From a virus (lineage: Duplodnaviria; Heunggongvirae; Uroviricota; Caudoviricetes): a DNA stretch of 43,077 bases. Position numbers: made by a program. This document shows positions 34,401-40,400 of this stretch, one piece after another. The first letter of the stretch is position 1. The number at the start of each line of letters is the position of its first letter. The stretch lies in the IMG/VR virus record IMGVR_UViG_2563366968_000005, positions 1 to 43,077 of that record, one strand, 5' to 3'.

Positions 34401-37400
34401 GGGGCTTGGTGGGCCAAAAGTATTGGATGATGTCTATCGTCCAGTCGATCGACCGACAGACCCTTATGCGCAAGCTGGAGAAACAATTGGTGGGTATTTA
34501 GTTCCAGGAGTTGGAACGGCAGGAAGCATGGCTATTGGCTCACTGGCAGAGGCTGCAAATCAGAAAGGCGATTTCGCACAAAATGCAGCAAGAAACGCCG
34601 GAGTTAACCTTGCCGCTCAGGGGGTTCTTTCCGCAGCAGCAAAGGGAATAGGGCGTGGAATAACGGCTATAAAAGGTGATATTGCGCCAGAAGTGGCGAA
34701 GAAAATTGCCACATCAGAATCGATGGGCGTGACACCAATGACATCTGATGTTATCCCGCCGAAAAATGCTTTCACTCGCGGCCTTACTCAGGATGCCGAG
34801 GGGGCTTTGCTCGGGACAGGCTCAAAGAGAGCGGAGCAATATGCAACGCGTAGTAAGCTGGTAAGCAATTATTTTGACCGTTTTGGTGAGTACAACCCTG
34901 ATGATGTGGTGAAATCTCTGACCACCACGTTAAGGGGGCGGAAGGATGCCGCTGGCGCTGTTATCAATGACGTCACCAATAAAATGGGTAATGCCGCAGT
35001 TGATACCACAAATACCATGAATGCTCTGAATACAGCGATCGCAAGACAGGAACGGCTTGGGACTTCAGCCAATCAAAGCCTGCTTACATCCTTGCGTAAC
35101 CTACGTGAAGAATTAGCAAACCCTGCAACTGATTTGGATGTTACGTTTGATCTCTTGCGTCAGCACAGAACAGCATTTAGATCTAATGTTCAGGGAGATT
35201 CTATGGTCTTCCCCAACCAGGCAAAAGCAGCTACCAATATGGTAGAGAATGCAATGTCAAAAGACCTTCGTAACGCAGTTGCAAAAAACCTCGGTGCGTC
35301 AGACGCAGCAAAATACCTTAAAGCAAATTCCGATTATGCAAACGTTTATAATAAGGTGCTTAATAAAAACATTGCTAACAAGCTCAACAAGGCAAGCAGT
35401 GAAGCCAGTCCTGAACTTATAAATACCGTTGTATTAAGCAGAAAGCCATCTGACGTGAAACGAATCTGGAGCGCATTGGATGATAAAGGGAAAGATGCTA
35501 TGCGTGCAGCTTACGTCAGCAAAATAGCGGAAAAGGCCGGTGACTCTCCAGCCAAGTTCATCACTGAAGTTAATAAGCTTAAATCTCAGTCAGGCGGTGA
35601 AATTTACAACACTATTTTTTCTGGAAAGCACATGAAAGAGCTTGATGCTCTTCATGAAGTTCTACAGCAAACAGCAAGGTCAGACACCGCAAATGTAGTA
35701 ACTCAGACGGGGCAATCACAAGCCAACAGGATAAGGACGATTGGCGCAACTGCGACTCTTGGAGTATCAATGGGGCTTGAGGCTGGCTTTGGTGCAATGA
35801 TGCGTTTGTATGAGTCCAAAGCCGCAAGGAATATGCTTCTTCGTTTGGCAAACACCAAAGCAGGAACACCAGCCTATGAAAGAGCGCTAAATAACGCTGC
35901 GAATGCCATCAGACCGCTGTTTGCTACTGAGGCAACACAGCAGTAACGTATGGGAAATTGGATTCAATCGCTAACATTTTCTTTTTACTTTTCCAACAAA
36001 AGCTTTGGTTGAATCCATATTTCCATAACCGGAAATGGTTTTTGACATTAAAACTGTTCCAGTAGGATGTATTACCCATGAGTCGATAACGCGTTGAGTT
36101 TCGCCATTCGCGCCGATTCCTATGATGGAGTTTTTAGACAATGCTTTGTAAGCCATGCCGCCCGCATCTGTCCCAGAATATGTGATGCTGGCATCTTCAC
36201 CGCTTGTCTTAATGATGAATGTTCCACTAAAACCATCTTCTTCCGGATGGAAATTATTTCGTTCTGAATAGCTTATTCCGCGCATATCTCCAACGACCCA
36301 GCACTCTGCTGTAGCCCCAAAAGATATGAATAAGAACATAGCAGCAAGAAATTGCTTCACACCAACCTCCTTAGTTTTGAGCAGGATACCAGATGATAAT
36401 GTGTAGTTGGAGTAGCGCGGTTGTAATGCAAGCATTTTGTTTTAGTTTTATGCTTGCTTGTATGTGTGCACAGTGTATATAATGCAAGCATAAATCACAA
36501 CAAAGGTGCTTGCATTATGACTGAAAAGAAAAGTGGCGAAGGGAAAGCTAAGGGCGGGATCGCTCGCGCAAAGTCGCTGACTAAAGAGCAGCGTTCTGAA
36601 ATAGCAAAGAAAGCAGCGGCTGCAAGATGGAAGGATAAACCATTAATTGCTACGCATAAGGGATCGTTCCAGCATGAATTCGGGATTGATGTTGAGTGCT
36701 ATGTGTTAAATGATGATAACAAAACTGCCGTTATTAGCCAGAGAGGCATGGGAGAAGCGATTGGTCTTGGCGAAGGTGGCAGCAGGTTGCCAAAGTTTAT
36801 TCAGGGGAAAACTATTTCTCAGTATATCGGGCATGAATTAAGGGCAAAACTTGAAAATCCTCTTATTTTTCAATACAAACAGGCGGGCACGAACACTCCA
36901 GCTAATCCTGTAATACATGGCTACGATGTAACAATATTAATTGATTTATGTCGAGCAATCTCTAATGCTAAAGCTGAAGGTAAGTTGCTTTCCAGTCAGG
37001 AAGGGATTGCTAAGCAAGCCAGAATCATTATTGATGCATCAGCCAAGGCGGGCATTCAGGGGCTTGTTTATGCTTTGGCAGGGTATGACAGAACAAAAGA
37101 AGAGGTAATTCAAGCATATAAGCGATATGTTGCTGAAGAGGCTCGTGAGTATGAAAGAGAGTTCACCCCTGAACTTTATGAGCATTGGTATCGTCTGTAT
37201 GGTATAGACAAACCAGTTAGAGGGCGACCATGGGCGTTTAAATATCTTACGATAGATCACATTTATTACCCATTAGCCAGAAGTGAAGGAAAGGTATTTA
37301 ATTTAGCAAAAACGTCAAAAGAAGAAAAAGGCAGCAAAAACGATAAAATACACCAGTTTTTATCAGAGGTTGGAGTTAAGGCTCTTAGAACCCAAATAGG

Positions 37401-40400
37401 TAAGGTTACTGGTATTGCAATGGTTTCTGATACTCGAGAAGAGTATGAGAAATACATAGATGAAAAGGTTATTGGACAAAGAACCATAGACTTAAAAGAT
37501 AAAGAATAAGAAAATCCCACCGTCAGGTGGGTTTTTTATAAGGAGTAATCATGATTTACCCATCAAACAACCCACCAGTTTGCCTGATTGGATGCCAGCC
37601 TTGCAGTTTTTATGGAATTAATTATGCCATGCTCAAGAGCCTTGTTAGCATCCAAAATGGTCGAGTCTGCTATCAGGGATGCCCACCTAATATGGGTTCC
37701 GATGTCGATATTGAACGTCTCAACGAAGCGATCAAGATCGTTATCGAGGCATTTCCCGTACTCTCTCAATCTGGCATGGTCGGCGGCTGGGGAGGCAAAG
37801 CACCATAATAGAGGATGTAACAGGAATCTTGATAATGGGTTTGCGAAACGTTCTGAGCCAGCCAGGAAAACGATATTAGCTATGGATTCAACATTGCTTA
37901 TGTTGTGAGTTCTAACGGTAACAGGGAGTGACTTAAGAAAGTTATACGCAGTAAAGCCAGCGGCAGTTTCCCCTCCCTGACTTGATATATGGATATTTAA
38001 TTCAGTTGCGCCTTGAGATAATGCGGTGAGACAGTGGTTCTGAAGTTGCCCAACAGTGGCAGTGTTAACGGGGCATAAGAAATGAATTGTGTGCAGCATT
38101 ATTTTTCATCCTTACCATACATGGTCTTTAGCGTCTCAAGCAGCGCCTCTTTGAATTTGTCAGCTTCTTGCTGAGCAAATGACTCAACTGACTTTGGCGA
38201 CCTATCTTCATCAATCGCGGCTTGCAAAATCATGACGATCTCGGAGTTAACAGAGCGACCATTTTTTGATGCTCTGACAGCAAGAGCCTCGCGTAAAGAT
38301 TCAGGGATTCTTACCGTAGTTGGAGAAATTGACACACCCTTTGCCATATCACACCTTTGGTATTCAATTTGATAGCAAAGTGTATGCAAAAAAATTTTGA
38401 CTAGATATACTCACTTTGATATCTTTTGTATTCGGAAAGAGTTGTTTGTGTGGAGGGTAACATGGAGAAAGAAATAAGTAAGATTTTGGTAAGGATGCCG
38501 CAGTCGTTAAAGGATGCTATAGGTAGCAGGGCAAAGGAAGAGTGCAGGTCGTTTAACTCAGAGGTTATCAAGCGCCTGATAGACAGCTTGAAGAGAGAGG
38601 GGGTAATGGTATGAGTAAAGAATGTTGTTTCTGCGGCATTAGCGAATCAGACGCTGATCAAACATACATTTACTCTAAAGAAACAGGTCGGATGCTGTGT
38701 AGTGACTGCGTGTTGGACATCATAAGATACAAGCATCTTGGATGTTCTGCCAGCATTAGCAATATAGGTGAAGTATATGAAGGGAAAGATATAACTGATA
38801 GATCAGAAAGTTGAAGCCCCAACTGCGGGAACAGTCAGGGCTTCGGTTGTCAGTAAATCCGTGGAGAAAAACCAACATGAATAGTATAGCAATTTTAGAA
38901 GCAGTGAACACCTCTTACGTACCATTCAACGGTCAGCAAATTATCACCGCCATGGCTGCCGGAGTTGCATATGTTGCGATGAAGCCAATCGTTGAAAACC
39001 TCGGAATGAGCTGGGGTACTCAGCAACAAAAACTTATGAAACAACTAGATAAGTTCAACTGTATTCATATGAATATGGTTGCTGCTGATGGAAAGCTTCG
39101 TAAGCTACTCTGCCTTCCTTTGAAGAAGTTAAATGGATGGCTGTTCAGCATCAACCCCGAGAAAGTTCGTGCTGACATCCGCGATAAACTGATTCAGTAC
39201 CAGGAAGAATGCTTTACTGTGCTGCATGACTACTGGACAAAGGGAAAGGCAGAAAATGCACGTAAGAAAACATCTGTTGATGACAGGACTCCGCTTCGTG
39301 ATGCTGTAAATATGCTGGTCAGCAAAAAGCATCTAATGTACCCAGAAGCTTATGCAATGATTCATCAGCGTTTCAATGTGGAAAGTATTGAAGAGCTTGA
39401 TGCATCTCAGATACCGCAAGCCGTAGAGTACATCCACAGGGTAGTGCTTGAAGGTGAGTTCATTGGCAAACAAGAGAGGAAAGTCAACGAGCTTTCTGCA
39501 AAAGAAGCAAACAGCCTTGTATGGTTATGGGATTATGCCAACCGCTCACAGGCATTATTCCGCGAACTGTATCCGGCGCTGAAACAAATTCAATCGAACT
39601 ATTCCGGCAGATGTCATGACTGCGGTTATGAGTTCTCCCGTATTATCGATATAGCGAGAGATGTTTTAATCAACCATACACGAGATGTTGATATTAATGA
39701 GCCAGACGGACCAACGAATCTTTCCGCATGGATGAGACTTAAGAATAAAGAATTACCTCCTTCAGTACATAACTACTGACAGATAACCAACGCAACGACC
39801 CAGCTTCGGCTGGGTTTTTTTATGCCCAAAATTCACCGTAGCCATGCTGCGGCGATTCCTTGTGTCTGGAGCAAATTAAATGAGAGACATTACAGCCAAT
39901 GTGATCGTATCGATGCCTTCGCAACTCTTCACTATGGCGCGTTCTTTTAAAGCCGTAGCCAATGGCAAAATTTATATCGGTAAAATTGACACTGACCCTG
40001 TAAATCCTGAAAACCAGATTCAGGTTTATGTGGAAAACGAAGACGGCTCTCACGTTCCTGTTTCGCAACCAATCATCATTAACGCTGCTGGATATCCTGT
40101 ATATAACGGACAGATTGCCAAATTCGTAACTGTGCAAGGCCATTCTATGGCTGTTTATGATGCGTATGGTGCGCAGCAGTTCTATTTTCCGAATGTGCTG
40201 AAGTATGATCCTGATCAGTTACGGCGGCAATTAGAAGACCCAGATGGAGCGAATAAATACCCAAAACTTCAGATAGCAAGATGGAGAGACAGTTATGATG
40301 TAAGAGGTTGGGGGGCTATTGGTGATGGTGTTCATGATGATACATCAGCTCTATCAGAATTACTTTCTGTTGCAACAGGTGGTGAAAAGATAGATGGGCG

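Follow-up and report, generated by a model that had tools for sequence, protein, structure and literature searches.

What is the function of four short repeats that precede an accessory gene in a P22-like phage, and where did gene and repeats come from? The stretch of DNA analysed here, referred to as the window (IMG/VR record IMGVR_UViG_2563366968_000005; 43,077 nucleotides (nt), to the whole of which all coordinates refer), is an E. coli phage or prophage of the P22-like (Lederbergvirus) type. A gene for a protein of 330 amino acids (aa) with a P63C domain lies in it, and a first-pass annotation of the sequence had described before this gene four copies of a 10-bp motif alternating around a TATAAT, which were read as an operator array or a structured leader. 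Our analyses indicated that these repeats are indeed a control element and that they belong to the 330-aa gene. We favour, with confidence a little better than even, the explanation that the P63C gene and its four repeats are orphan transposon cargo, the repeats acting as autoregulatory operators in the promoter and the third and fourth of them (S3 and S4) also blocking the translation of read-through transcripts. The two proposals of the annotation thus both survive and are probably both true in part, the sites lying within a -35/-10 promoter while S3:S4 pairing can bury the start codon. The gene and its control region consist of the following features.

36426-36435, plus strand: S1, exact ATGCAAGCAT; its reverse complement is the transposase -35 (TTGCAT) in intact transposons, and the -10 of that promoter is gone here.
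36450-36459, plus strand: S2, ATGCTTGCtT, one mismatch to the ATGCTTGCAT form; holds the -35 of the P63C gene, TTGCTT (36454-36459).
36478-36483, plus strand: -10 TATAAT, overlapping the S3 10-mer by 2 nt; the 8-mer core of S3 begins with its last T.
36482-36491, plus strand: S3, exact ATGCAAGCAT; spans the predicted transcription start and would be the 5' arm of an S3:S4 hairpin in transcripts starting further upstream.
36502-36506, plus strand: AAAGG, the ribosome-binding site (RBS) of the P63C gene, directly 5' of S4; relatives have GGAG or AGGA there.
36506-36515, plus strand: S4, gTGCTTGCAT, one mismatch to the ATGCTTGCAT form; between RBS and ATG, and the 3' arm of the hairpin.
36517-37509, plus strand: the 330-aa P63C-domain gene (Pfam PF10546, phrog_2384, structure model).

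The four sites, starting at 36426, 36450, 36482 and 36506, and the TATAAT were found as described, except that only two of the copies are perfect; the mismatch of S2 falls within the 8-mer core. Both the -10 and the ATG fall within a perfect 12-nt inverted repeat (36479-36490 / 36507-36518). The motif is not repeated genome-wide: ATGCWWGCAT with up to one mismatch matched 8 times against 9.7 expected in the 43 kb, four of the eight within 90 bp, and the exact 8-mer core occurs four times in the window against 1.3 by chance, three times in the array and once as a stray copy at 12987. The decisive evidence that the array is not due to chance is that the same array has been kept at 51 other loci.

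These were identified among 80 related genome loci, fetched via the P63C protein, in which the core TGCAAGCA/TGCTTGCA was sought with up to two mismatches per site. The array was present at 51 of the 80, with sites at about -86, -62, -31 and -7 from the ATG and always in the orientation + - + -. Together with the window they make up 52 array loci, in which the core positions are identical in 46-52 of 52 and the spacers between sites show no sequence relation. The annotation's overlap of the last copy with the start codon holds for 37 of the 52, where S4 runs into the A of the ATG as TGCTTGCATG, and does not hold for the window itself, where S4 ends one base short of the ATG at 36517. In a Mu-like prophage of Morganella (L087, about 1350-1440) S1 is flipped (TGCTTGCA) and lies 18 nt from S2, with S2-S4 canonical.

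Different repeats were observed at other P63C loci (L022, L025, L029, L030, L034, L036, L045, L051, L056 and L067, also L053, L064 and L083). An acidobacterial subfamily has the repeat TACTTGCyCGrG positioned over -10 boxes, and a 25-nt inverted repeat TATACTTGCyCGGGCA...TGCCCGrGCAAGTATA around back-to-back TTGAC boxes; the P63C proteins that go with it carry the N-terminal extension (S/T)xAAKxLSxLGA. A third group of repeats consists of 9-mers such as TGCTTAGCA and TGTCAAGCA.

Comparison of the 52 loci showed that the sites are arranged with the geometry of a promoter. The distance from S2 to S3 is 31-32 nt in 45 of them, which gives a promoter spacer of 17-18 nt, and the consensus directly before S3 is T39 A43 n n A41 T50 (TAnnAT). 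The family promoter is therefore TTGCA(t/a) in S2, 17-18 nt, then TAnnAT. That of the window, TTGCTT, 18 nt, TATAAT, fits the sigma-70 criterion of 17 +/- 1 nt spacing; a generic promoter scanner left it unlisted, its -35 matching at 3 of 6 positions only. Transcription of the P63C gene is predicted from this geometry to start at the 3' edge of S3, at about 36490. S2 would then supply the -35, the base before S3 would complete the -10, the leader would be about 25 nt long and S4 would occupy the gap between RBS and ATG, while S1 would be the -35 of a divergent transposase promoter that has been lost in the window.

Analysis of the loci surrounding the array revealed that in half of them the gene diverging from P63C encodes an IS1-family transposase, and that transposase, control region, P63C and a small convergent open reading frame (ORF) lie together between GGTAGTGnnTCAGTTTGAA terminal inverted repeats. 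Both ends were available for 21 complete P63C elements; every one of these is bounded by the GGTAGTGnnTCAGTTTGAA repeats and flanked by identical 8-bp target duplications. Two transposases were compared with the IS1-family model NF033558 and scored 72.7 and 101.9 bits against a cut-off of 100, so that one of the two passes. On the transposase side a mirror promoter is formed by TTGCAT (the reverse complement of S1), 17 nt and (C/T)ATAAT. The transposase ATG often stands 7 nt past this -10, on the minus strand and some 120-140 nt ahead of the P63C start (L017, L024, L035, L041, L048, L058, L079 and L081), a spacing that points to a leaderless mRNA. In three further loci (L007, L012 and L033) the transposase has a leader with a compensated inverted pair, CTCAAGCA / TGCTTGAG, just ahead of its start.

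Insertion sequences (IS) with passenger genes are known as a general concept under the name transporter IS, or tIS (PMC7986276). A metagenome sample anchored on the transposase (L090-L169; 57 elements, with 35 loci informative for the small ORF) showed that the present family measures 2.1-4.8 kb and has the order inverted repeat, small ORF, variable cargo, transposase, inverted repeat (for example L091 1366-4361, L097 142-4987 and L139 1129-4355). The small ORF was present in 31 of the 35 informative loci. P63C was the cargo in 4 of the 57 elements and absent from the other 53, and a role for it as an obligatory transposition gene was rejected on this count. The other cargo comprised GmrSD, a helix-turn-helix protein with an IrrE/M78 peptidase, Fic, HD-type dGTPase-like, proteasome-like and ClpP-like proteins; this alternative cargo looks defence- or conflict-like. 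The small ORF, conserved and 72-95 aa long, lies beside one inverted repeat (L007 4969-5208, L009 5000-5221, L023 3452-3685 on the minus strand, and most of L090-L169). Its family comprises at least 7900 clusters and has no name, and no Pfam domain was found in it; its C-terminus, NPAAVALGRLGGLKGGKARAxKLTPExRxEIAxKAAxxRW, is the same motif as the N-terminus of P63C.

Searches of the window with two transposases of related elements (tblastn) gave no match, no GGTAGTGnnTCAGTTTGAA-like repeat (up to five mismatches) was found near the locus, the sequences at 33577, 41707 and 41840 being five-mismatch chance matches, and no small ORF of the transposon was found in the window. Since transposase and inverted repeats are missing, the P63C gene and array of the window are, judged by sequence, an orphan copy of the transposon's cargo module that was captured without the transposase. 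As cargo of such elements the module is spread over many bacterial phyla, and it did not originate in the phage. Orphans of this kind, with no transposase or small ORF nearby, account for 26 of the 52 array loci and have kept all four sites. Several that were inspected lie in prophages beside S24 repressors, antirepressors, tape-measure or tail-tip genes, and others in P22-like prophages of Serratia and Providencia and in the Mu-like prophage of Morganella.

The orphan state raises the question whether the array of this phage is a relic in which the promoter hexamers alone matter and S1 and S4 are leftovers from the transposon. The transposase promoter that S1 served is indeed destroyed in the window, its -10 replaced by AACTAC, and S2 and S4 each have one mismatch there. 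We nevertheless hold a relic to be quite unlikely, because S1 is as well conserved in orphans as in transposon-borne loci (exact in 22 of 26 each), because the diverged phage-borne orphans of Serratia, Providencia and Morganella retain all four cores while their spacers have been randomised, and because the S3:S4 complementarity of the window reaches the 12 perfect bp noted above.

The transposon elements further indicated which protein may read the sites. In the transposase-anchored set, every locus with exact cores ahead of the transposase also has a P63C match, except L150 with its single core. In 20 elements the control region accounts for 69 exact cores, and 6 were counted elsewhere in 160 kb, where chance would give 4.9. 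The sites travel with P63C and not with the transposase or the small ORF. When proteins with TACTTGCyCGrG-type sites were compared with those with TGCAAGCA-type sites, consistent differences were confined to the N-terminal 45 residues. The co-occurrence of sites and P63C, the invariance of the sequence and these N-terminal differences by operator type favour P63C as the reader; we infer that the sites are probably bound by the P63C protein itself, likely via its N-terminal region.

The sites could alternatively be operators for another protein, namely the IS1-family transposase, the small KGGKARA-motif protein or a host factor. IS1 InsA is known to repress its own promoter, the transposase promoter of intact elements overlaps S1, and the N-terminal motif of P63C recurs in the small ORF. 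This explanation is nonetheless very improbable, since the sites are missing from elements in which the transposase and the small ORF accompany other cargo, since neither gene is present at half of the array loci, this phage among them, and since one host factor common to six phyla is unlikely.

A further possibility is that the four sites are a pure RNA element without any operator protein, whose mutually complementary segments (1:2, 2:3 and 3:4) form alternative leader structures like those of an attenuator or riboregulator, and whose sequence is frozen since any change needs up to three compensating changes. All of these pairings are possible, and the full four-site region folds as RNA with -45.3 kcal/mol (z -6.7). 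The + - + - orientation is strictly kept, the transposase side of some loci has the compensated pair already mentioned, and weak covariation is seen in flanking pairs. However, the core pairs showed zero covariation over the 52 loci, and the paired cells amounted to 84.0% against 83.4% in the shuffled control. The commonest S4 variant, TGCTTACA, found in 6 loci, has no compensating change in S3; its G to A change leaves an A-C mismatch, and there are no wobble intermediates. Stems of such age normally covary and these do not. The flipped S1 of Morganella keeps the 8-mer and loses the S1:S2 pairing. What is conserved is the sequence, not the pairing. The conserved -35 and -10, moreover, put the transcription start at the end of S3, so that the module's own mRNA would be without S1-S3, and no Rfam family matched; only generic microRNA-hairpin matches far under gathering scores were returned, owing to the long palindrome. 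An RNA element alone is for these reasons unlikely, though less so than a relic. A classical trp-type attenuator was dropped as a candidate, the conserved promoter falling between segments 2 and 3.

A second, RNA-based layer of control beside the operators is nevertheless indicated by S3 and S4. S3 is always of the AA form (52/52) and S4 of the TT form (51/52), and this fixity counts for a hairpin because a symmetric DNA-binding dimer would need none. The folding of the leader, which the first-pass annotation had proposed as a check, agreed with it: an RNA containing S3 folds with -16.4 kcal/mol (z -4.6) and has its AUG paired, and the RNA from the predicted start at 36490 is unstructured (-0.2 kcal/mol). 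Since S4 is an inverted copy of S3, and transcription from the module's own promoter is predicted to begin after S3, only transcripts entering from upstream would form the S3:S4 hairpin, pair their start codon and be blocked in translation.

The two layers can be combined in one mechanism. The invariant 8-mer would be the operator of a sequence-specific protein travelling with the module, most likely P63C. By occupying the -35, the start site and position +17, with S1 serving as an auxiliary site, P63C would repress its own promoter, and this autorepression would keep its expression low and steady in the lysogen. The transcripts silenced by the hairpin would in this phage be the antiterminated late transcripts that run through the gp16-like gene, and the module would be insulated against read-through much as IS10 and IS50 are.

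Several observations weigh against this mechanism. The transcription start of the P63C gene comes from consensus prediction alone. Weak covariation was detected in the flanking pairs (30 pair types against 24.6, a value reached in 0 of 500 shuffles), and four-way complementarity alone could be constraint enough to freeze the sequence. Searches with Pfam, NCBIfam and PADLOC detected no recognised DNA-binding domain in the 330-aa protein. The N-terminal motif differs among proteins with the same operator (ARAxxL...EIAKKAA versus VVAxxM...DRAKKGA), and the small ORF shares this motif yet occurs in elements without TGCAAGCA sites. The RNA-only and relic explanations nevertheless fit the data less well than the mechanism with operators and hairpin.

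The 330-aa protein matches Pfam PF10546 (P63C) with 35.9 bits against a cut-off of 26.1 at residues 202-289, so that the domain prediction called for in the first-pass annotation gave a positive result. It belongs to phrog_2384 (E 4e-103), which has no assigned function, and identical proteins are labelled 'P63C domain-containing protein' in RefSeq. The protein has 2766 homologue clusters and is 55-68% identical to relatives in Proteobacteria, Acidobacteriota, Firmicutes, Myxococcota, Abditibacteriota and Chloroflexi. A basic two-helix motif, KGGxARAxxLxxExRxEIAxKAAxARW, occupies residues 10-38 and is followed by a conserved alpha/beta domain (residues 43-190), well predicted in the structure model; the helical P63C domain (residues 202-289) is poorly modelled. 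A search with the central alpha/beta domain (848 representatives) always recovered it together with P63C. The sole new architecture in that search was a distant homologue, P0340 (367 aa), with a RelB antitoxin domain fused after P63C. No Pfam match was obtained with the N-terminal 191 residues, NCBIfam gave nothing for this protein or the 129-aa protein described below, a sequence profile search of the PDB gave spurious matches to designed repeat proteins only, structure-based fold matches were weak, and the 13 distant hits of a plasmid search were uninformative. By association, the cellular role of the P63C protein may lie in phage-host or mobile-element conflict.

The P63C gene is one of three between the gp16-like ejection-protein gene, whose end is at 35946, and a group of mnt-like, arc-like, ant and tailspike genes that starts from 38099. 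The neighbouring features are listed here.

35971-36360, minus strand: gene of a 129-aa secreted protein with signal peptide and GTG start (36360-36358); its own module, outside the P63C unit.
36366-36372, minus strand: AAGGAGG RBS of the 129-aa gene (CCTCCTT on the plus strand), 5 nt from the GTG; read from the sequence.
37516-37531, no strand assigned: two-way intrinsic terminator, CCCACCGTCAGGTGGG between T/A runs, separating the P63C and ClpP-like genes.
37563-38099, minus strand: ClpP-like gene, 178 aa (Pfam CLP_protease, E 2e-11); a separate module.

Antisense to the ClpP-like gene lies an 85-aa ORF (37551-37808, plus strand) that matches phrog_7758 (E 1e-61); it is either a genuine overlapping gene or a recurrent mis-annotation in phage records.

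The two unrelated accessory genes that had been placed between the gp16-like gene and the mnt/arc/ant region, a minus-strand one for a small signal-peptide protein with its own AAGGAGG RBS and the plus-strand 330-aa one, can both be read from the sequence, and no virion homologues of either protein were found. No defence model of PADLOC-DB 2.0 matched the 129-aa, 330-aa or ClpP-like protein.

The 129-aa protein begins with a typical signal peptide (MKQFLAAMFLFISFGATA|EC) and belongs to a narrow, almost wholly enterobacterial family with invariant Cys20 and Cys129 at both ends of the mature chain. Its confident structure model is an 8-stranded beta-barrel, and the structure-based homology search returned matches to generic barrels only. 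A periplasmic or envelope-associated accessory protein is the most likely assignment. A lipoprotein was rejected since there is no lipobox, and a specific lysozyme inhibitor was dropped as a candidate, the barrel matches being only generic.

Comparison with other phages and prophages revealed homology breakpoints at about 36358, 36391 and 36632, which flank the control region. The left-hand gene, the P63C allele and the ClpP-like gene swap independently, the control region occurs in 67 of 5426 complete E. coli genomes, and no complete E. coli genome or phage record has the combination of the three found in the window in one stretch. In many E. coli prophages a Panacea-domain (DUF4065) gene replaces P63C while the secreted-protein and ClpP-like genes are unchanged, and the sites are absent (L003 3330-3779, from E. 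coli PA45B and many ST-related genomes, is an example); in phage 611R6 the left-hand gene is different and the sites are kept. The repeats as regulators of the secreted-protein gene were ruled out by these exchanges, and the 129-aa gene is a module independent of the P63C unit. In E. coli GPEC1405 (hit H16) the P63C gene is interrupted by an IS5-family insertion. What had been called a compact accessory island is accordingly a mosaic of independently exchanged modules, although the link to the ClpP-like gene is real by way of the cargo class: the ClpP-like protein of the window is 30-31% identical to cargo of L120 (4414-4974; E 2e-22) and L139 (1247-1840; E 5e-26). The P63C and ClpP-like accessory genes of the phage may, by this sequence similarity, come from one cargo pool.

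What had been an anonymous hypothetical protein preceded by repeats can thus be described as a putative portable unit of promoter, operators, translation insulator and gene, with an identical 8-bp signal kept in at least six phyla. The long-unannotated P63C family gains a testable handle in the predicted operator, autoregulation and read-through block. Phage accessory slots and IS1-family transposon cargo appear to share kinds of conflict genes (GmrSD, dGTPase-like, Fic, IrrE-type and ClpP-like). A broader proposal, which we offer tentatively and would not expect to hold in full, is that P63C proteins are phylum-spanning, self-regulated DNA-binding effectors with an invariant 8-bp operator, carried as cargo of an undescribed three-part IS1-family tIS (small KGGKARA-motif protein, exchangeable conflict or defence cargo, and transposase), and that P22-like phages drew at least two genes of their sieA slot, P63C and ClpP-like, from this pool for superinfection exclusion or defence. 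A literature search found no account in which P63C figures as IS cargo, and none that describes the conserved small ORF or the TGCAAGCA array. The combination of cross-phylum operator invariance, three-part transporter IS and link to phage accessory slots appears to be undescribed; its components, namely IS cargo, promoter-embedded operator arrays and fold-back insulation, are of kinds already known.

The sieA or moron slot of P22-like phages lies between gene 16 and mnt. The P63C gene occupies the same position and is likewise a self-promoted, terminator-bounded and freely exchanged accessory gene, while the content of the slot is unrelated to sieA by annotation (the SieA sequence itself was not compared) and the P63C gene carries its own conserved regulatory array. 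The Pfam family PF10546 was reportedly defined from p63 of phage Mx8 by Iyer, Koonin and Aravind in 2002. Phage regulators that combine P63C with a DNA-binding domain share with the 330-aa protein a C-terminal P63C following an N-terminal region resembling nucleic-acid-binding ones, and occur likewise as phage or prophage genes; the N-terminal half differs, being here an unannotated alpha/beta domain with a basic two-helix motif instead of KilA-N or Bro-N.

IS1 ends are said to have the consensus GGnnnTG, and long IS1-family members are said to exist (ISfinder; Siguier et al., 2009 and 2015). The relatives of the module share with IS1-family tIS the DDE transposase of that family, GGTAGTG... 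inverted repeats and 8-bp duplications, while the window has only the cargo gene and the control region.

Arrays of short palindromic operators bound by a cooperative autorepressor are known from the 8-bp met boxes of MetJ and from the Arc and Mnt operators of P22 immI. Like these, the present array places several near-palindromes of 8-10 bp on the -35, at the start site and in the first transcribed part of the protein's own gene. The spacing of 22-25 bp and 31-32 bp in the family of the window is unusual by comparison, and neither a ribbon-helix-helix nor a helix-turn-helix is detectable in the P63C protein, whose operator role is predicted.

Fold-back inhibition of read-through transcripts was reportedly described for IS10 and IS50, in work attributed to Davis, Simons and Kleckner (1985) and to Krebs/Schulz and Reznikoff. 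In those elements as in the present module an inverted repeat straddles the element's own transcription start, so that only longer, foreign transcripts would fold and hide the translation start. The module differs in that a cargo gene would be protected here as well as the transposase, and in that the arms of the hairpin consist of a repeat which is also placed on both -35 boxes and is invariant across phyla, neither of which a simple hairpin requires.

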